A stretch of DNA of 64,000 nt from Candidatus Omnitrophota bacterium (GTDB taxonomy: Bacteria > Omnitrophota > Gorgyraeia > Gygaellales > Profunditerraquicolaceae). Positions 5,236-57,621 of this stretch are shown here, piece after piece. A program made the position numbers and the translations under genes. Each line of letters opens with the position of its first letter. Position 1 is the stretch's first letter. Location of the stretch: contig JBAZKL010000001.1 of the NCBI GenBank assembly GCA_041650835.1, forward strand, positions 101,094 to 165,093, given 5' to 3'. The notes beneath the pieces are model-generated. The model was not told where the DNA came from. It did no database searches and saw only the letters and a program-made list of their open reading frames with translations.

Positions 5236-5877
5236 ATTATATCATACTCTTGGCATTTTACAATTATTACTTACATTTATTTTCCCGGCACCCCGCTTTC
5301 CAGGTCCCGAGGTCAATTACAACTATACTTTTTCCTCTCCCTTCTTTAAGATCTCGTTGCATTTCAAGCAAACGATCGATCTAACAAACCTTTCCTTTGT
5401 CTCTTTAAAAAATGTTACCAAATAATTATGTTGGAACTTGATCCCGCATCTCTTGCAGCTATTCATGATACTCTCCCTTTTTTGTTTCGTTTTAAAATTC
5501 CCCTAAAACTAACAGCTCAACAAATAATCCGCCCTGACAAACAGGCAAATCGCGACAAAAAATATTCTAAATTCTTCTTTGCTTCAGGTATTGATGTATT
5601 CCCGGAATTACTATTACTCCTTCATGCGGGCTTACCGTGAAAAGATTCTACACAAGAGCATTTTCCTGATGGGACATTTAAGGAGAGCAACAAGAGTGAG
5701 CAATAGGTATAGTATACCACTATAAAAGAATTATAACACTATTATTTTTTTAAAGAAGACCTGATTGATGCCCTCTTTCACGGGCATGACAAACGGGTTC
5801 GATTAACAATAAACGATAATTAAAATATTCCCGTCATCGGCAACTCACCCGGGGTCATTGTGGGGAGCCATAAACAT

Positions 5878-8734: not shown

Positions 8735-8919
8735 CTCCTCCTGTTAAACTATAAAAACGCTTTTATTCCCTTTTTATAAAACCACCGGATAAGTAATAAC
8801 TATACCACTGCCATAGGATTAAGGAAGATTTATTTGCTTTATAAAGAAACGATTCCCCGGTCAGAACACCTTCATTCACCTTTACGGAGCGGCGGATGGA
8901 CTGGCCTCTTAAACTAATC

Positions 8920-12386: not shown

Positions 12387-12497
12387 GCGCCAGAAAGGCG
12401 CATACCAACGCAATTCCGCGGCAGAAAGCCGCGTACCGGCGCAATTCCAATCTGCGCCGGGTGCTTTTAAGCGTTGGGTGAAGCAGAAAGCGAAACA
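12387..12497. repeat. Structured repeat element, family B, copy 1 (GCAGAAAGC-containing hairpins)
   Basis: 34-nt identity (ACCAACGCAATTCCGCGGCAGAAAGCCGCGTACC) and further blocks shared with 55437-55622. Lies between the rsmH stop and the small ferritin-like gene start. Confidence 0.7.
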
Positions 12498-12577
12498 TCT
12501 AACATAATTATATCACGACAAAAAAAGTATGGAACAATTCTTTACCGCAGAAGTGATCCGAAGTTAAGAACGCGATC

Positions 12578-13654
12578 TTATTCCCCTTGTTTTTGCGAAG
12601 AGCGCGCCGCCCAACGTAAGATGGCACTTTTGGAGCGCGGGTTATCAAAACATTCCTGAGGCATCGGCCGTATCGGCTCGCGGCAAATATCGGAATAGAT
12701 CCCTGCTTCCAATCCTGCCTGAAAAAACTTCACTACCCTCTTCTCTTCACCGGAATGAAAGGTTAAAACCGCCGCTCGGCCATTGGGTTTAAGGCATAGC
12801 GGCAGATTCCTTAAAAACTGCTCCAACGCCGAGAACTCGTCGTTAACCTCAATGCGTAAAGCCTGGAAAGTTCGACGGATCGAAGTAGTTATTTCTTTAC
12901 GGGAATCGGTACGAGCGATAGGAGCCAACGCTTCTTTTACGGTATCCGCCAACGCCGTAGTTGTAGAGATTTTACGGCAGTTCTTGTGGATCGCCCTGGC
13001 GATCTCTTTCGCGTAGGGTTCATCGGAATTATCAAAAAGCACTTTTTCCAGGGCTTTTTCGGAAATTCTCTTGATCAAAGCTGAGGCTGGTTGGCCGCGT
13101 TGGGGATTAAACCGTAAATCAAGCGGCCCTTCCCTTTTAAAGGTAAAGCCCCGCTCAGGATTATCCAATTGCATTGACGAAACGCCCAGATCAGCCAAAA
13201 TGAAATCAAACCCGCCGCCGGCGTCGGCAAGTATCTTGGGAATACCGGCAAAATTGATCTGTCGCAGGATAAGTTCTTTATCGGTAAAACCCAAAGCACG
13301 CAGCCGCGCTTGGGTACGCGTTAACTCGATAGGGTCAACATCGATGCCAAAAAGACGGCCGCCGGGGATAATGCGCTCAAGAAGCGCCTCTGCATGCCCG
13401 CCGAACCCCAAGGTAGCATCCAAACCTGTCTCACCGGGTTTAGGGTCAAGGACTTGTAAGATTTCTTTAACGCAGATCGATCGATGCATCCCGGCAGGCG
13501 TTTTCCCGCTCTTAATGATCTTCTTGATATCATCAGCGTATTTTTCCGGATTGAGTTCCTTGTACTTTTCGTCAAAGCGGCGGGGATGCGTGCCCTTATA
13601 GCGCACGCGCCGTTTTCGTTTCAAAGTTTCATTGTTTAAAACGGTATTTTCCAT
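12578..13654 (-). CDS. rsmH: 16S rRNA (cytosine1402-N4)-methyltransferase RsmH
   Basis: HRSICVKEIL...GLDATLGFGGHAEAL...FGIDVDP motifs. Start uncertain: the conserved core begins at M 13489, and the listed ORF start at 13738 would overlap the mazG-like gene. Confidence 0.8.
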   Translation of the reverse strand: MENTVLNNETLKRKRRVRYKGTHPRRFDEKYKELNPEKYADDIKKIIKSGKTPAGMHRSICVKEILQVLDPKPGETGLDATLGFGGHAEALLERIIPGGRLFGIDVDPIELTRTQARLRALGFTDKELILRQINFAGIPKILADAGGGFDFILADLGVSSMQLDNPERGFTFKREGPLDLRFNPQRGQPASALIKRISEKALEKVLFDNSDEPYAKEIARAIHKNCRKISTTTALADTVKEALAPIARTDSRKEITTSIRRTFQALRIEVNDEFSALEQFLRNLPLCLKPNGRAAVLTFHSGEEKRVVKFFQAGLEAGIYSDICREPIRPMPQECFDNPRSKSAILRWAARSSQKQGE

Positions 13655-13694
13655 AAATAAAAATAAAGCAAAAAAGATATCCCCGGGTAAAGCC

Positions 13695-14042
13695 TCATAA
13701 TTTATTGTACTTTGTATGTTTGCCCCTGGCTTTTTCAACCGGGTACTTTAATTCATTTTTCTCAAGCTTTTCTTCCATCGCGCTCATTAGATTTATTCCA
13801 AGATTATCAGCCAACTCAAAAAGATATAAAGCAATATCGGCAATTTCGTCTTTGATCTCGCCATGGCTTTGCTTTGTGTATCTCTCCACTTCCTCAGCAG
13901 TCTTCCATTGAAAATGCTCAAGAAGTTCAGAGGCTTCAAGGATCAATGAAACAGCCATATTTTTAGGATCGTGGAATTGCATCCAGTCGCGTTCATCCCT
14001 GAATTTTTTTATTTTATCTGTAATTAATTTAACTTCGCTCAT
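13695..14042 (-). CDS. MazG-like nucleotide pyrophosphohydrolase
   Basis: FRDERDWMQFHDPKN...E.SELLEHFQW...EIADIALYL signature of the MazG NTP-PPase domain. Confidence 0.8.
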   Translation of the reverse strand: MSEVKLITDKIKKFRDERDWMQFHDPKNMAVSLILEASELLEHFQWKTAEEVERYTKQSHGEIKDEIADIALYLFELADNLGINLMSAMEEKLEKNELKYPVEKARGKHTKYNKL

Positions 14043-14365
14043 AATATCCTCCCAAATTAAAAAACCGGATCTCCCCCCCTGACCCGGCTTGTTTAATGCT
14101 TATTATTGCGTAAAATCGCGTTCATAACGCCTCTTATGCTTTCGTCGTAATTGTATATAAGTATACAACTTTTGGGCCTGGATGACAAGGAGGATTTAGA
14201 AAACACCTATAATGTTTTGATTCCCGCTTATAGCTATGTAAGAGACCGGGAATGACGCCCCACTTGTCATGCCCGCGAGTTTACTCGGCTCTAAACGGGC
14301 ATCTAAAAAGCATAGATCCCCGCTTAAAGCATGCGGGGATGACAGACGAGAAAAACGGGAATGAT

Positions 14366-14530
14366 TATATAAATTTTAAAGGTTAAAAATCAAATAACAA
14401 AAGAAATTCAAAGAATAAAGATCAAATTTTAAAATTACCTGCGGTAGGCAGTAACCTTATACCTTTAACCTTCCTTTGTTATTTATACTTTAGACTTTAT
14501 CATTAACGCTATATAACCTAACTACTTAAC
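14366..14530. repeat. Palindromic MITE-like intergenic element, family A, copy 1
   Basis: About 85-90% identical to 16544-16715. Inverted arms AAATAACAAAGGAA.../...TTCCTTTGTTATTT around a CTGC-GGTA-GGCAG core. Confidence 0.75.
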
Positions 14531-14610
14531 CTAACAACCAAACTAACAGCTTAACCTTTACCTTAACCTAAAAACCGGTCTATCTATTTTAAGACCTGGT
14601 CTTGTGAATT

Positions 14611-16503
14611 CTATTCAGCTAATTCTTCGAGGTGTTCCCAGCGTTGGTAGGCTTTTTGGAGTTCGTCGGAAAGGGCTGCGGAGCGCTTTTTGACGCGCTC
14701 AACTTCCCCGGGGTCGCCCTGGTAAAAGTTAAAATCCGCTAACAATTTATAGAGCTCTTCCTGCTCATTTTCTAATTTCTCGATCTTTAACGGAAGTGCG
14801 TCTAATTCTTTCTGCTCTTTGAAGGTAAGCTTACGAGGGACAACAGGTTTCTTCTTTTTTACAGGCTCAAGTCTTTCCTTTGTTTTCGGAGGTTCAAGGC
14901 GCGCTGCCGGCTTACGCTGGCTTAACCAGTCGTCATAGCCGCCGGGATATTCGTTGATCTCACCCGCTCCTTCCATCACGATGGTCGAGGTAACTACATT
15001 ATTCAGAAATGCCCGGTCATGACTGACTAAAATAATTGTTCCCGGATAATCAAGGAGTAACTCTTCCAAGAGCTCCAGCGTCTCAATATCCAGGTCATTG
15101 GTCGGTTCATCCATCACCAAAACATTCGAAGGCTTGGAAAATAGTCGAGCCAGGAACAAGCGATTTCGCTCGCCTCCGGACAAAACTTTTACCTGTGTCA
15201 GGCTGCGTTCAGGGGCAAAAAGAAATTCCTGCAAATATCCCAGAACGTGTTTAGGCTTGCCGTTAATGATAACGGTGTCGCCCGCGTTATTTACATTCTC
15301 CGCTACAGTCTTATCTTCATCCAACTGCTCGCGCAGTTGGTCGTAATAGGCAACCTCGAGATTAGTGCCCAGAGTAACTGTTCCCCGTTGAGGCGCCAGC
15401 TTCCCCATTAAAATACGCAGTAAAGTAGTCTTGCCGCTGCCGTTAGGCCCGATCAGCCCGATCTTATCCCCGCGCGTGATCTGGGTCGAGAAATCTTTGA
15501 TCAAACATTTCTCATCGTAACTAAACCCCAGTTGGAACGCCTTGATCACGCGGTGGCCGGAAAGAATCGAGTTTTGCGCGCGCATACGGACTTGGCCTTC
15601 CTGCTTGCGCTGGGTCTTCTTCTCTTCCCGTAAGTGCTCCAGGGCCTTGACGCGTCCTTCATTGCGGCAGCGCCTGGCTTTAACACCCCGGCGGATCCAA
15701 ATTTCTTCTTCGGCTAATTTCTTATCAAAATGCCCCCAGGCTGCTTCGTCAATATCGAGCGCCGCTTGTTTACGCTCTAAAAAAGTCTTGTAATCGCATG
15801 CCCAGCTATAGATCCTGCCCCGGTCAAGTTCAATGATCCTGGTAGCTAAATGCGTCATGAACATCCGGTCATGGGTGACAAAGAAAACCGTGCCCGGATA
15901 ATTTGAAAGGAATTCCTCCAGCCAATTGATAGAATCGATATCCAAATGGTTGGTCGGTTCATCCAAAAGCAATACTTCAGGTTTTATCACCAGTGCCCTT
16001 GCTAACAGCACGCGGCGCTTCTGGCCGCCGGAAAGGCTCTCGAAATCACTCTCCCCGTCGAGCTTCATGCGGGTGATCACATTCTCAACATGGTTATTCA
16101 CATCCCAGGAATTGGTATGATCCAACTCGGCTTGCAGGACGTCCAGCTGTTTTAATAATTCCGGGGTATGTTCCGTATGAAGCCGGTGAGTGAGCGCGTG
16201 ATATTTGCTTAAAAGTACCGCGCGTTCCCCTAAACCGGAGAGGACGATATCATAGACGCTTCCTTTCATATCGACAGGGACTTCCTGCGGCAGGTGCGTG
16301 ACTTGTATTCCTTTTTGAAAAATAACTTCTCCGTCATCAACTGCCAATTGTCCGGCCATCACCTTCATCAAGGTGGTTTTACCCGCGCCGTTCCTGCCAA
16401 GCAGGGCAACACGCTCGCCCGGTTCAAGCTGAAAGCTTAAACCGTCAAAAATAAGCGGGCCGCTGAATTTTAAGGTAATTTCCTGCAAACTGATCAAGGC
16501 CAT
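14611..16503 (-). CDS. ABC-F family ATPase (Uup/EttA-like, two ABC domains plus C-terminal coiled coil)
   Basis: Two Walker A (GRNGAGKTT, GPNGSGKTT) and two signature motifs (LSGGQKRR, LSGGERNR). No TM domain. Confidence 0.9.
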   Translation of the reverse strand: MALISLQEITLKFSGPLIFDGLSFQLEPGERVALLGRNGAGKTTLMKVMAGQLAVDDGEVIFQKGIQVTHLPQEVPVDMKGSVYDIVLSGLGERAVLLSKYHALTHRLHTEHTPELLKQLDVLQAELDHTNSWDVNNHVENVITRMKLDGESDFESLSGGQKRRVLLARALVIKPEVLLLDEPTNHLDIDSINWLEEFLSNYPGTVFFVTHDRMFMTHLATRIIELDRGRIYSWACDYKTFLERKQAALDIDEAAWGHFDKKLAEEEIWIRRGVKARRCRNEGRVKALEHLREEKKTQRKQEGQVRMRAQNSILSGHRVIKAFQLGFSYDEKCLIKDFSTQITRGDKIGLIGPNGSGKTTLLRILMGKLAPQRGTVTLGTNLEVAYYDQLREQLDEDKTVAENVNNAGDTVIINGKPKHVLGYLQEFLFAPERSLTQVKVLSGGERNRLFLARLFSKPSNVLVMDEPTNDLDIETLELLEELLLDYPGTIILVSHDRAFLNNVVTSTIVMEGAGEINEYPGGYDDWLSQRKPAARLEPPKTKERLEPVKKKKPVVPRKLTFKEQKELDALPLKIEKLENEQEELYKLLADFNFYQGDPGEVERVKKRSAALSDELQKAYQRWEHLEELAE

Positions 16504-16543
16504 AATTCTTTACAATATTGTACTTAAAAGATTAATGACATGA

Positions 16544-16715
16544 CTATAAAAATTTTAAAGTTTAAAGGCTAAATAACAAAGGAAATTCAAAGAATAAAGG
16601 TTAAATCTTAAAATTTCCTACCTGCCGGTAGGCAGGAACCTTATACCTTTAACCTTCCTTTATTATTTAGACTTTAGACTTTATCATTAACGCTATATAA
16701 CCTAACTACTTTACC
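16544..16715. repeat. Palindromic MITE-like intergenic element, family A, copy 2
   Basis: Arms TAAAGGCTAAATAACAAAGGAA / TTCCTTTATTATTTAGACTTTAG. Central hairpin CCTGCCGGTAGGCAGG. Confidence 0.75.
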
Positions 16716-16806
16716 TTAACCTGTCAACTGATCTAACACGGATTCCCGCGTAAAATAGCAAGGCCCGGGATCTCGAAAGATACCGGGCCCTGTTTGAAAC
16801 TCAAGA

Positions 16807-17007
16807 TTATAACTTGACTACATTAGTAGCCTGCTCGCCTTTAGGGCCTTGTTCGATATCGAACTCAACCTGAGCGCCTTCAGCTAAAGATTTATAGCCA
16901 TCGCCCTTGATAGCGGAATGATGTACGAATACATCTTTGCCGTTTTCAGGTGTGACAAATCCATAACCTTTTTGATCATTGAACCACTTTACTATTCCTT
17001 TTGCCAT
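16807..17007 (-). CDS. csp: Cold-shock protein (CspA family)
   Basis: [15 protein letters not shown]...VFVHHSAI motifs with AGGAGG RBS. Confidence 0.9.
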
Positions 17008-17178
17008 TGCTTGTACCTCCTTTTCTCTATATTTAGTAACTTGTTAGAAATCGTTATCATCTTTACCTGCTAGACTTTAGACTTCTAACGGGACAAACAA
17101 TGACAAACACCATGTTGCTGCTGACTTACACCCCGCGCTGATTGGAAATTGCGCGGGTGTGCTGCTTTCCGCAGCAAC

Positions 17179-17245
17179 AAAAAACCGTAAGGTCAGTTAT
17201 CCTTTCCTTACGGCTAAGACTTCTAATCTTTTACTGTTTTTTAGT
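17179..17245 (-). terminator. Hairpin + U6 terminator-like module (second copy of the csp-associated module)
   Basis: CCGTAAGG...CCTTACGG hairpin, then TTTTTT on the sense strand. Preceded by the AAGATTAGAAGTCTT block shared with 5158-5235. Confidence 0.55.
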
Positions 17246-17285
17246 ATACCACTAATGCGTTTTTTGTCAAGGGTTATTATATAAA

Positions 17286-17415
17286 GTCTAAAGTTTAAAG
17301 ACTAAATAACAAAGGAAGCTCAAAGACTAAAGATTAAATTTTAAAATTACGCCTTAAACCTTTGACCTTACTTTGTTATTTAAACTTTAGCCTTTAGACT
17401 TAACTCTCTATCTCT
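17286..17415. repeat. Palindromic MITE-like element, family A, copy 3 (shorter and diverged)
   Basis: TAAAGACTAAATAACAAAGGAAG...CTTACTTTGTTATTTAAACTTTAGCC arms. Lacks the central GGTA hairpin. Confidence 0.6.
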
Positions 17416-17425
17416 CATTAAAAAG

Positions 17426-18112
17426 CTACTTCGCTGACTCGTTCTTTATCCTGCCGATGAGCCGCAGGAACCCATCAAGGATCGTCAAGGGATGCGGCGG
17501 ACACCCCGGAATATAAAGATCTACAGGAACAAGTCCCTCCAATCCCCGGGACGATTCAGGCCCGTCGACAAAAACGCCTCCGGATATCGCGCAGGCGCCG
17601 ACCGCGATCACGATCTTTGGTTCAGGGATCGCCTCATATGTTTTTATCAACGCGTCCTTCATATTGCGCGGCAGAGGCCCCGTGACCACGATCCCGTCGG
17701 CATGGCGCGGTGAGGCCACAAACTGTATCCCGAACCGGCTCAAATCAAAGACCGGAGTATTCAAGACGTTAATATCCGATTCACAGGCATTGCATCCTCC
17801 GGCGGATACTTGCCGCAGTTTCAGCGACCGGCCGAAAAGCTTACGGATATCTTCCTTCAAAGCGCGCGCCAAGGCATACTCATCGCCTTTAAGGAGAAGA
17901 GCGCCGCGGTTGGATACGGCCATCCGGAAATCAGTAGAGTATTGAATACCGCCATCCGGAACAAATGTAATCGCCCCCGCGTCAATACCGGGCCCCTGCC
18001 CGGCGATGATCGGCCGGCCGCGGTAGCGCGCAGGCAAAACCGGCAGCTTACCTTTCGGGAAGCGCAATGTCCGGCGGCCTTGTCTAATACGCGTGAGAAT
18101 GATTTTCAGCAT
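17426..18112 (-). CDS. NuoB/HycG-like small subunit of a group-4 energy-converting hydrogenase-type complex
   Basis: GGCNACE, PRHADGIVVTGP and YIPGCPP motifs, plus an ~85-aa N-terminal extension. Confidence 0.8.
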   Translation of the reverse strand: MLKIILTRIRQGRRTLRFPKGKLPVLPARYRGRPIIAGQGPGIDAGAITFVPDGGIQYSTDFRMAVSNRGALLLKGDEYALARALKEDIRKLFGRSLKLRQVSAGGCNACESDINVLNTPVFDLSRFGIQFVASPRHADGIVVTGPLPRNMKDALIKTYEAIPEPKIVIAVGACAISGGVFVDGPESSRGLEGLVPVDLYIPGCPPHPLTILDGFLRLIGRIKNESAK

Positions 18113-18121
18113 ACGGATCCT

Positions 18122-19633
18122 TTACAGATCATGTCCACAATACGATAAATTAAAACTTTTATTACACAACGGAAAATCAGAGATCTCCTGGTTACGCATA
18201 GCCATGGCCAGGCCCTGCCAGTTATGGAAGGACGGGTCCTTGATCTTATACCGGCTGAAAGCCCCCTGCCCGTCGGTTATCCCGACATGCATGATCTCTC
18301 CTCTCCAGCCTTCCACCAGGGAAAGAGCCAGCGCCTCCTGCCTCATCAAGCCGACGGGAACCATGATCTCGCCCTTAGGCAAGGCAGGCAGCGCCTTTAG
18401 CAGGAATTCCAGCGAACGCATCACTTCCTGCCGGCGCACCAAAGCCCGCGCGTACACATCACCGGTCGCCGCAAGTGAAATAGGGATATGATAGAACTGC
18501 CACATTCCCGAAGAATACTCGATACGCGCGTCGTGCTCAAGTGAGCTGGCGCGCGCCGCCAGTCCCACCAAACCGAACTTCTTCGCGTTCTTGGCAGAGA
18601 TCACGCCTATCCCTTCAAAACGCGCCAGCACCGAAGGGCGGGTGAATAAAAGCTCACTGACATCCTCAAATTCTTTTTTGTAAGTCTTAAGTTTGCGGCA
18701 AAGTTCATCCGCCATTTTAGCGTCGATATCGAAGAGGACGCCGCCCGGACGGCACAAGCCTTTTCCAAAACGATTGCCCGTGACCGTTAAAAGCAGGTTT
18801 AAATAATCGCCCCGCATGCGGCCGAAATACTCGCTCGTCGGCATAAAACCGGCATCTCGTCCTAACGCGCCCAGGTCGCCCACGTGATTGGCCAAACGCT
18901 CCAACTCCAGGCATACCGCGCGGATCGCCTGCGCCCGTGGTGAGATCGCGCATCCGCAAAGCGATTCCACCACCTCACAAAACGCCGTAGAATGCCCGAT
19001 GGATGTATCTCCGGCAATGGATTCACTTAATCGAACGCTACGGCTCAGATCGCATCCTGCCATCATCGCTTCTATTCCGCGGTGCTGATACCCTAACTGG
19101 ATCTCCAGATGCATCACTTCTTCCCCATGGCACTGGAAGCGGAAATGCCCGGGTTCAATAATACCGGCATGCACCGGGCCGACGCCGACTTCATGGACCT
19201 CTTCTCCATCCATGGCATAAAAAGGGTACGCCCCCGGTATCGAACGCGTTGAGATATCCTTCCAGACATCAGGAGCCCCCCGATAATTAGAGTGATACCG
19301 TAGCGGCTTAAACCAGGGATGTCCCTCGGGAAGGATCGCCCACTGCTCCGCGATCTCACGTTCGAACATGTTCGCCTGAGTGAGCGCCGGAGTCAAAGCT
19401 TCGTAACGCGGATCTTGCGCCGGAATGCGCGCCGAAAGGGCCCGTATCCGGGCTTCATCGTCGAATCCCAATATCGCGAACAATCGAATGTCCCCCCCGG
19501 GCTCAAGGCTTCCAAAAAGGTTTATCAAGCGGGCTTCATGCTGACAACGCCGGATGACTTCCGCGCGAAATTCCTGAACATTGAGTACCGCAATATCATT
19601 CAGCGCGATACGCGCGCCATTGAATAAATCCAT
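18122..19633 (-). CDS. Fused NuoC-NuoD / HycE-like large subunit lacking canonical NiFe-binding cysteines
   Basis: GPVHAGIIEPGHFRF and HRGIE motifs. No N-terminal RxCGxC or C-terminal DPCxxC ligand motifs; the C-terminus reads ...FPLCNKSFNLSYCGHDL. Confidence 0.75.
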   Translation of the reverse strand: MDLFNGARIALNDIAVLNVQEFRAEVIRRCQHEARLINLFGSLEPGGDIRLFAILGFDDEARIRALSARIPAQDPRYEALTPALTQANMFEREIAEQWAILPEGHPWFKPLRYHSNYRGAPDVWKDISTRSIPGAYPFYAMDGEEVHEVGVGPVHAGIIEPGHFRFQCHGEEVMHLEIQLGYQHRGIEAMMAGCDLSRSVRLSESIAGDTSIGHSTAFCEVVESLCGCAISPRAQAIRAVCLELERLANHVGDLGALGRDAGFMPTSEYFGRMRGDYLNLLLTVTGNRFGKGLCRPGGVLFDIDAKMADELCRKLKTYKKEFEDVSELLFTRPSVLARFEGIGVISAKNAKKFGLVGLAARASSLEHDARIEYSSGMWQFYHIPISLAATGDVYARALVRRQEVMRSLEFLLKALPALPKGEIMVPVGLMRQEALALSLVEGWRGEIMHVGITDGQGAFSRYKIKDPSFHNWQGLAMAMRNQEISDFPLCNKSFNLSYCGHDL

Positions 19634-55436: not shown

Positions 55437-55622
55437 TTCGCAGAAAGCGAAACACCAACGCAATTCCTTTTAAGCGTTGGGTGTAGCAGAAAGCGAAACA
55501 CCAACGCAATTCCGCGGCAGAAAGCCGCGTACCTTGCCCTTCCAATTAAGGCAAAGTGCTTTTAAGCGTTGGGTGTAGCAGAAAGCCTGCCTGCCGGTAG
55601 GCAGGCGAAACACGCCGGGTAT
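55437..55622. repeat. Structured repeat element, family B, copy 2 (tandem GCAGAAAGC-containing hairpins)
   Basis: Internal direct repeats (GCAGAAAGCGAAACACCAACGCAATTCC x2; TTTTAAGCGTTGGGTGTAGCAGAAAGC x2). A 34-nt block is identical to copy 1 at 12405-12438. Overlaps the 3' end of the methyltransferase ORF. Confidence 0.7.
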
Positions 55623-56205
55623 TTTTCCCGGCGATAATAACAGTTTGACATACATCCCGGTAAACTCTTACCCTTAAACCTGCCCGCCGCAGGTATTCTT
55701 TTACTCCCGACAAGGACATTTGAGACGGCGCGTGTTCATGCCCGTCTAACGCGTGCACTTTTTCCATGATCTTCTGTCCCCTTTTATTCAGGTCCGCGAT
55801 GATCAGTTTTTCCTTAGTTACCCGCAGCATCTCTTTAAGGCATTTAAGCGGATTTTTCGCGTGATGGATAAAATTAACCGAGATCACAGAATTAAAATAA
55901 TCATCCGGGAAGCGTAATTTCTCGGCATTCATTATTTTAAGGGAAGCCGATCTCTCAAGCCCGAGCGCCTTGAGGCTTACCCCGGCCGCTCTTTGCGCTT
56001 TTTTATCCAGGTCGACCGAGATAAACTTAAAACCTTTGCGCGCCAGAGCTAAAGCCAAATGCCCCCTTCCCGTGCCAACTTCCAAGAGCCGCCCTTTACC
56101 GAGTTCGGCCTTGGCGAGAATAAAATTCCTGGCCCTGGGGATATCATAACCGTAGTGCTTAAACAATTTCAAACGAGCCTGCGCCTCTTTTAACAAATTA
56201 TCCAT
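55546..56205 (-). CDS. Class I SAM-dependent methyltransferase
   Basis: LEVGTGRGHLALALA motif I and a short Methyltransf_11/25-type core. The last ~20 codons run into repeat element B. Confidence 0.7.
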   Translation of the reverse strand: MDNLLKEAQARLKLFKHYGYDIPRARNFILAKAELGKGRLLEVGTGRGHLALALARKGFKFISVDLDKKAQRAAGVSLKALGLERSASLKIMNAEKLRFPDDYFNSVISVNFIHHAKNPLKCLKEMLRVTKEKLIIADLNKRGQKIMEKVHALDGHEHAPSQMSLSGVKEYLRRAGLRVRVYRDVCQTVIIAGKNTRRVSPAYRQAGFLLHPTLKSTLP

Positions 56206-57493: not shown

Positions 57494-57621
57494 TTCTTAA
57501 AAAACTCTTTTATATGATTATACCACCTTAAAATGATTAGTGAACAATTCTTTGTCCCTGATGCCCTCTCCTCAGAGGCAGTGTCTGCCGTCTCAATTAC
57601 CGATAATGCCGCATTTCCCGC

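Follow-up and report, generated by a model that had tools for sequence, protein, structure and literature searches.

We report that three A+T-rich palindromic elements clustered around the csp and ABC-F genes of a Candidatus Omnitrophota bacterium are members of a dispersed, non-coding, intergenic family present in several Omnitrophota genomes, and that this family probably behaves as selfish, non-autonomous repeats of the same general kind as the enterobacterial repetitive intergenic consensus (ERIC), Correia and repetitive extragenic palindromic/bacterial interspersed mosaic element (REP-BIME) families. The three copies were found in a stretch of 64,000 nucleotides, referred to here as the window (GenBank assembly GCA_041650835.1, contig JBAZKL010000001.1, positions 101,094 to 165,093), and numbers beginning with L (L001, L113 etc.) are the labels of the sequence stretches or loci with which it was compared. 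The window is also identical, in reverse orientation, to part of the 868-kb contig k141_1924541 of ENA ERZ27247363. The Omnitrophota are an uncultured phylum with small genomes. The palindromic family is apparently undescribed, and the literature searched contained no description of Omnitrophota repeats. Its architecture is one of three-level nesting, in which a tail palindrome, an A+T-rich core and a 20-nt G+C-rich mini-palindrome are set within or against one another, and the mini-palindrome is its most unusual component.

All three copies share one orientation (plus strand, by direct reading and by repeat finding) and all three are intergenic, flanked by the minus-strand NuoB-like, csp, ABC-F and MazG-like genes, as an initial annotation made from the sequence alone had proposed when it placed three clustered copies around ABC-F and csp. 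Copy 1, the most decayed of the three, is located 3' of the ABC-F stop codon, copy 2 lies between the csp terminator and the ABC-F start codon, and copy 3 is placed with the stop codon of the NuoB-like gene (17426) on one side and the -35 box of the csp promoter on the other. Copies 1 and 2 are 88.7% identical (177 aligned bases) and copy 3 is 73-75% identical to both; the third copy is shorter and diverged, as had been described, with the correction that its shortness is due mainly to a missing 20-nt G+C insert and not to truncation. No fourth copy was detected by BLAST within the window. Each copy is internally palindromic, with arms of 42-62 nt (42-66 nt in the assessment of terminal inverted repeats) that are 71-79% complementary (79% for copy 3, with arms at 17284-17345 and 17340-17401), and each arm is made up of about eight 7-nt units (TAAAGNN) that flank a AAATTTTAAAATTT centre. 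In copy 3, for instance, the heptads read TAAAGTC TAAAGTT TAAAGAC TAAATAA CAAAGGA ... TAAAGAT TAAATTT and the centre reads AAATTTTAAAATT; in some copies the outermost inverted ends read CGTTAATGATAAAG...CTTTATCATTAACG. Members of the family measure 130-155 nt (about 130 nt for the core and about 150 nt including the insert), and no open reading frame (ORF) of at least 90 amino acids runs across any copy. As single strands the copies form long imperfect hairpins that are much more stable than those of shuffled sequence: the minus strands of the three window copies have folding energies of -43.7, -49.9 and -31.8 kcal/mol, the last being that of copy 1, with z-scores of -6.7, -6.8 and -3.1 relative to dinucleotide shuffles.

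The evidence that these copies represent a dispersed family comes from other Omnitrophota sequences. A 22-nt arm pattern matched 51 metagenome stretches, among which BLAST and an nhmmer profile search recognized full-length members in L002, L003, L013/L017, L014, L018, L032, L033 (two copies), L037, L041, L046 (four copies in 7.7 kb) and L050 (two copies), together with a copy in L006 whose right arm is truncated; by the same searches the other stretches with the pattern were chance 22-mer matches. At least 17 additional copies were thus located on other Candidatus Omnitrophota contigs, this being the NCBI name carried by the proteins on the family-bearing contigs and also by a protein identical to the ABC-F of the window. 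Three contigs (435, 366 and 93 kb), assigned by their consecutive NCBI protein accessions to a single other Omnitrophota metagenome-assembled genome (MAG), account for at least 15 copies, and more occur in other lineages; exact-protein look-ups ruled out that this family-rich MAG is the window's own genome. Between genomes the copies remain 80-92% alike. None of the 19 non-redundant copies falls within a gene; the nearest gene end is often only 0-40 nt away, and the flanking genes are co-directional, convergent (e.g., in L033 and L046) or possibly divergent. Like the window, several other loci carry between two and four copies, and clustering is therefore a usual trait of these repeats, in agreement with the early suggestion of a hotspot. 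The initial annotation had also noted that a lack of further copies, together with a lack of terminal inverted repeats or target-site duplications, would point to a local segmental duplication, a reading with which three same-orientation copies within 3 kb would be consistent. Given the copies elsewhere, some of which are nearer to copy 2 than copy 1 is (copy 2 and L046 2793-2935 are 91.6% identical, above the 88.7% between copies 1 and 2), and flanks that have only other repeat modules in common, we consider a purely local duplication to be ruled out for practical purposes. Copy 2 had no similarity in plasmids, in cultured phages or in 5,426 E. coli genomes (28 Gb; blastn, word size 11), and eight pattern matches to the A+T core in viral contigs were rejected as chance, nhmmer having returned none.

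Table 1. Features of the window discussed in the text, with position, strand and basis or description
Feature	Position	Strand	Basis or description
Copy 1 of the A+T-rich palindromic core	14361-14532	+	repeat finding, BLAST, nhmmer (envelope 14370-14515, 92.9 bits)
Copy 2 of the core, with shortened tail	16540-16716	+	repeat finding, BLAST, nhmmer (105.2 bits)
Copy 3 of the core, without G+C insert	~17273-17413	+	nhmmer (113.9 bits)
Intact 20-nt mini-palindrome in copy 2	16617-16636		CCTACCTGCCGGTAGGCAGG, set between ATTT and AACC at the centre
Decayed 20-mer remnant in copy 1	14438-14451		CCTGCGGTAGGCAG; direct reading and alignment with copy 2
Second intact 20-mer	55586-55605		CCTGCCTGCCGGTAGGCAGG, within AGAAAG^CGAAAC of repeat B
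Tail module	14510-14603 (94 nt)	+	TAACC/CTAAC-rich, ends in hairpin AAGACCTGGTCTT; separate repeat often flanking the core
NuoB-like subunit gene	17426-18112	-	ORF list and Pfam scan
csp gene	16807-17007	-	ORF list and Pfam scan
ABC-F ATPase gene	14611-16503	-	ORF list and Pfam scan
MazG-like gene	13695-14042	-	ORF list and Pfam scan
csp promoter	17243-17270	-	TTGACA, 16-nt spacer, TGgTATACT; 11/12 matches plus TG extension
csp terminator-like G+C hairpin	16762-16790	-	GGGCCCGG...CCGGGCC, then U-rich stretch

Orthologous loci, obtained through homologues of ABC-F, differ in which copies they hold (Table 2). L001 (CAZPNW010000012.1), the single match in the genome collection, represents a sister lineage with about 88% nucleotide identity to the window. 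L113 and L116 retain both the adjacency of csp and ABC-F and the csp promoter, but the stretch ahead of the -35 box is only about 45 nt long in them and carries no element. As these element-free loci have the same gene order, the copies are best explained as lineage-specific gains. At the copy 3 site L114 has G+C-rich repeats instead, and these include a perfect 20-mer.

Table 2. Orthologous csp/ABC-F loci, with ABC-F protein identity relative to the window
Locus	ABC-F identity	csp-to-ABC-F spacer	Copies of the element
Window	100%	303 nt	1, 2 and 3 present
L001	96%	313 nt	1 absent; 2 and 3 present
L114	93%	513 nt	2 present; 1 absent; 3 absent (G+C-rich repeats instead)
L113	94%	109 nt	1, 2 and 3 absent
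L116/L117	83%	72 nt	1, 2 and 3 absent

We note that in some comparisons the copies evolve more slowly than neutral sites. The copy-2 regions of L001 and L114 are 97.8% identical over 232 nt, as compared to 71% for the third codon positions of ABC-F and 87% for the first 150 nt of that gene, and between the window and L001 the copy-2 region is 90.5% identical, with ABC-F third positions at 77.8%. Purifying selection, exchange between lineages of a block reaching from csp to copy 2, or homogenisation among paralogous copies could each account for this slow change. The csp gene itself is also strongly conserved: in a comparison of 16807-17242, its coding sequence is 100% identical to that of L001, and its third positions are 97% identical to those of L114 and 91% to those of L113, far above the 69-78% of ABC-F third positions in the same comparisons, which suggests that synonymous sites are under very strong constraint or that a csp block has recombined.

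For the origin of these differences we favour a scenario in which the repeats would have been gained lineage by lineage in intergenic mosaic hotspots, alongside other small palindromic modules, and mobilised in trans by an enzyme presumably encoded elsewhere. Because no target-site duplication was seen, a single-strand hairpin mechanism (HUH-like, or like that of the REP-associated tyrosine transposases, RAYTs) or recombination would be likelier than classical DDE cut-and-paste. An inserted copy would be co-transcribed and would form an A-U-rich hairpin of about 60 bp, and neighbouring signals would be remodelled: the A+T-rich DNA immediately ahead of the csp -35 box is provided by copy 3, and the copy-2 block has replaced the ABC-F Shine-Dalgarno region found in relatives. 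The spacers of filled and empty lineages indeed differ in the 40 nt before the ABC-F start, where relatives have a GAGGGG-type Shine-Dalgarno sequence and filled lineages do not. In the lineages with copy 2 the native region (GAGGGG in L113), at 16504-16543 of the window, is replaced by A+T-rich sequence in which a TACAAT box precedes the ATG by about 14 nt, suggestive of a short-leader or leaderless transcript. Effects of this sort on promoters, ribosome-binding regions and mRNA structure are regarded here as by-products of the element and not as its reason to exist.

Several observations weigh against our interpretation of the family as selfish mobile repeats. No clean empty-site junction was found at the orthologous loci, since the whole spacer differs between filled and empty lineages and alignments of the empty sites stop short of the element. 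Among 18 copies, no outer boundary was consistently flanked by a target-site duplication, whether this was sought by extension of the palindrome ends, by a grid of alignment boundaries or by a free search of each copy; the best grid boundaries fell within the conserved TAAAG/CTTTA repeats. No transposase or RAYT (including Y1_Tnp) was detected in a Pfam scan of 30 window ORFs, and none of the 158 ORFs in the 167 kb of loci that carry family members was multi-copy. The copy count for the window's own genome covers the 64-kb window only, and the relatedness of the family-rich MAG to the window is uncertain, its Pst proteins being only about 50% identical to those of the window and possibly paralogues. 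Lastly, the strong similarity of copies across genomes could reflect function instead of recent mobility.

The same results bear on the original designation of the element as one resembling a miniature inverted-repeat transposable element (MITE). Much of that designation stands: the element is small and non-coding, has inverted ends, is dispersed in many copies and differs in presence or absence between relatives. Neither a fixed-length target-site duplication nor, in the ORFs and loci examined, a cognate transposase was found, these being two of the checks that had been proposed, and strict MITE membership is therefore not supported. A classical MITE, that is, an internally deleted derivative of a DDE insertion sequence moved by cut-and-paste with duplication of its target, is in our estimation unlikely. 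The only candidates for a duplication are the direct TATATAA flanks of copy 1 and the CTATA/TATAA flanks of copy 2. Both are rich in A and T, occur in the window lineage only, are within chance for the composition and are absent from the other copies (at least 15), and no consistent outer boundary yields a duplication of 3 nt or more. No insertion sequence with matching ends was seen in the window ORFs or in the 167 kb of related loci, and the element is palindromic over its whole length, as opposed to having discrete terminal repeats.

Alternatively, the element might be a selected cis-acting RNA, a hairpin in the untranslated region (UTR) or between cistrons that sets mRNA stability, processing (e.g., by RNase III) or termination, as the initial annotation had suggested, for stability or termination, in the case of UTR stem-loops. 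The tight placement of copies between co-directional genes would fit such a role, as would the conservation of the copy-2 region above that of synonymous sites. The mRNA-sense strand also folds better than its complement in all three window copies (-43.7 versus -36.7, -49.9 versus -43.4 and, for copy 1, -31.8 versus -17.6 kcal/mol) and in about 12 of 15 unambiguous copies. This sense-strand signal is suggestive but was dropped, because in a cleaner comparison the consensus pairs show G·U about as often as A·C (17 versus 15, p = 0.86) and the orientation of the element relative to gene direction is not significantly biased (10 versus 4). RNAalifold found no compensatory changes (0 of 16 pairs), and across the full 43-pair palindrome 90.0% of cells are paired as compared to 90.2% in column-preserving shuffles, so the pairing derives from conservation of both arms and not from covariation. 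Furthermore, copies are also found between convergent genes, as in L033 and L046, the element is missing from the corresponding loci of close relatives, and no U-tract follows the element hairpin. The window contained no Rfam match at gathering thresholds, and when E-values up to 1 were allowed the only relevant match was a sub-threshold cspA thermoregulator over the csp gene, with none on the elements. A UTR role is thus conceivable in principle and is not borne out by these tests, and for copy 3 it does not apply to csp, since that copy sits upstream of the csp promoter. Overall we judge a selected RNA to be improbable, more so than a classical MITE. We give still less credence to a protein-binding array at the DNA level, in which phased TAAAGNN heptads would be bound by a nucleoid-associated protein or regulator, or as single strands by a Csp-type protein, and would define a regulon. 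Each arm keeps its roughly eight heptads, in regular phase, from copy to copy, copy 3 adjoins the csp -35 box, and GTCTTTG and GTCTTTA on the pyrimidine-rich strand may resemble the heptamer preferred by Bacillus CspB. However, copies lie beside unrelated genes, at either gene end and even between convergent genes, the csp promoter is intact and conserved in element-free relatives, the 7-bp phasing is unlike the helical repeat of DNA, and no candidate binding protein was identified.

The central hairpin of the element had been described as a component of both full copies. It is intact in copy 2 and persists only as a decayed remnant in copy 1, and it is not part of the element at all, since it proved to be a separate 20-nt palindrome, CCTRCCTGCCGGYAGGYAGG, essentially (CCTG)2CC·GG(CAGG)2. 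Copy 2 holds this 20-mer (ATTT^...^AACC) and its L001 orthologue is without exactly those bases, the rest being about 98% identical; in copy 3 the situation is reversed, since L001 has the 20-mer (GATT^...^AAAT), placed at the mirror-image position relative to the centre, and the window copy does not. Neither of these presence/absence pairs shows a duplication. A further occurrence that had been placed at about 55590, inside the unrelated repeat B, was verified at 55586-55605, where 0 matches are expected by chance in the window; the uninterrupted neighbouring repeat B units (55441-55533) read AGAAAGCGAAAC and have no 20-mer.

The 20-mer also occurs in viral contigs. In IMG/VR, 47 stretches (L066-L112) of 33-70% G+C carry an exact CCTGCCTGCCGG(C/T)AGGCAGG, which in 34 of them is the perfect palindrome CCTGCCTGCCGGCAGGCAGG and in the remainder a G·T variant, and two composition-matched controls (a mirror repeat and a shuffled-half palindrome) gave 0 viral matches each. 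In L096 (2239-2330) it interrupts the variable loop of a tRNA-Met, which ARAGORN nevertheless recognizes as a tRNA, and at about position 515 of L107 it lies in the D-loop of a tRNA fragment. Elsewhere it was seen at the centres of other palindromes, in hairpin loops and in runs of short periodic repeats; L092 and L067 are further examples of stretches that carry it. No protein family is common to more than 5 of the 47 viral stretches, and calls of the 20-mer as inside or outside ORFs in the high-G+C viral loci were judged unreliable. The exact 20-mer was absent from 2.3 Gb of cultured phages and 7.3 Gb of plasmids, and a literature search found no paper on the sequence. Based on its insertion points, which comprise either side of the A+T core centre, the two tRNA contexts just named, repeat B and further palindromes, we tentatively raise the possibility that the 20-mer is a minimal mobile element that inserts precisely, and without target duplication, into the loops and centres of hairpin-forming sequences already in place. 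If this speculation were correct, its base-for-base preservation in such differing genomes and viruses would imply a conserved sequence-specific enzyme or frequent horizontal spread, and, if truly mobile, it would be among the smallest mobile DNA units and a tractable one for studying hairpin-targeted insertion.

Copy 1 runs on into the 94-nt tail, which is 95.7% identical to L001 6126-6219. Tails occur as inverted pairs around cores in L003 and L013/L017 and back to back without a core in L048 (2181-2283). An insert of about 77 nt is present in L001 copy 3, and L001 copy 3 and L048 have inserts of about 60-77 nt at the same right-arm point. Beside one core with tails on both sides, L003 has about five tandem units of about 46 nt (GCTCAGGGTAAACCCTTCGACTTAAT...) at 5330-5580. 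Repeat B, at 12391-12498 and 55441-55620, is a G+C-rich nested palindrome with an outer stem, CACCCAACGC/GCGTTGGGTG, around two inner hairpins. In the csp 5' UTR (~17128-17165) a stem of the same outer type occurs without inner hairpins, and the L001 csp 5' UTR contains a 44-nt double hairpin exactly in the loop of that hairpin. A methyltransferase ORF (55546-56205) continues for about 40 codons past its Pfam domain; this extension crosses the 20-mer and terminates within repeat B, and the repeats may have remodelled its C-terminus. Adjoining copy 1, at 14200-14360, is another repeat family with the motifs GTCATCCCCGC, GTCATTCCCG and GGGCATGAC, and in L114 (~2130-2480) about 370 nt of repeats of the same types lie upstream of csp.

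With regard to known repeat systems, the A+T core has its closest counterparts in small palindromic repeats of other bacteria. The ERIC (or IRU) elements of Enterobacteriaceae are imperfect palindromes of about 127 bp that are intergenic, often between co-transcribed genes, with variants generated by insertion at fixed internal points, and to our knowledge no transposase or target duplication has been associated with them. The core is like ERIC in its size, its palindromy over nearly the whole length, its strictly intergenic position and its fixed-point internal inserts (here of 20 and about 77 nt), and differs in showing no sequence similarity (copy 2 had no match in E. coli genomes), in being A+T-rich and built of 7-nt repeats, and in its host phylum. 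Correia elements (NEMIS) of Neisseria are intergenic inverted-repeat elements of 100-155 bp that can alter promoters and form RNA hairpins; their terminal repeats are discrete and 26 bp long and the TA target is duplicated, and the Omnitrophota element has no consistent duplication and no discrete terminal repeats. By description the two are alike in size class and in clustering with other small repeats in mosaic spacers, as Correia elements cluster with dRS3 (PMC3733652).

The comparison with REPs concerns chiefly the 20-mer. By definition a REP is a stem-loop measuring 20-40 nt, one end of which bears an unpaired tag, GTAG or CGTC, and in T. roseum and H. neapolitanus small palindromes are reported to carry inserted REPs (PMC3733652). 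The 20-mer resembles them as a short G+C stem-loop that is intergenic, multi-copy and nested in other palindromes, and the Omnitrophota spacers resemble BIMEs as mosaic arrays. The A+T core, on the other hand, greatly exceeds a REP in size and is untagged, and the 20-mer is mostly a perfect palindrome in which GTAG is found only in the T variant and is paired in the stem, so that the unpaired tag of a REP is lacking. Unlike REPIN-RAYT systems, the present one has yielded no RAYT gene among the scanned window ORFs. REP families are usually species- or genus-specific, whereas the identical 20-mer spans contigs of 33-70% G+C. The Rickettsia palindromic elements (RPEs), selfish units of 100-150 bp restricted to one lineage, persist wherever insertion is tolerated, including in protein and RNA genes. 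The presence of the 20-mer in a tRNA-Met variable loop and in other hairpin loops recalls these elements by description, although RPEs, at 100-150 bp and in a single lineage, differ from the 20-mer on both counts.

Taken with the presence and absence of copies among close relatives, these features portray Omnitrophota spacers as fast-changing mosaics of nested palindromes that rewrite the promoter-proximal and ribosome-binding regions of csp and ABC-F. The repeats are relevant to annotation, to assembly and binning (repeats break contigs) and to regulation in Omnitrophota, and they are potential markers for strain typing.

The -35 box of the csp promoter lies about 10 nt downstream of the copy 3 end, and the promoter is kept in L001, L113, L114 and L116 whether the element is present or not; the csp terminator-like hairpin is native, outside the repeat, and conserved in five of five lineages including element-free ones. 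A scan of the window from 13500 to 18500 gave 0 intrinsic-terminator-like sites, with 6.5 expected from shuffles, and 18 promoter-like sites, with 6.9 expected, the majority of them within the A+T-rich repeats. An outward-facing promoter carried by the element was considered and not established, as the -10-like boxes at the element ends are limited to the window lineage and the box of copy 3 is partly flanking sequence. Elsewhere in the window, 40-nt repeats at 5708-5747, 8796-8835, 12504-12543 and 57514-57553 have minus-strand promoter-like sequences (TGnTATAAT or GTGGTATAnT) upstream of genes. Finally, the region past ABC-F is a variable island adjoining the repeat hotspot: the sister lineages encode restriction-modification genes there (MmeI/Eco57I-like at 473-1987 and 1974-2642 of L001, and type I HsdR-like at 6347-8893 of L113), and at the same position the window has MazG/RsmH.

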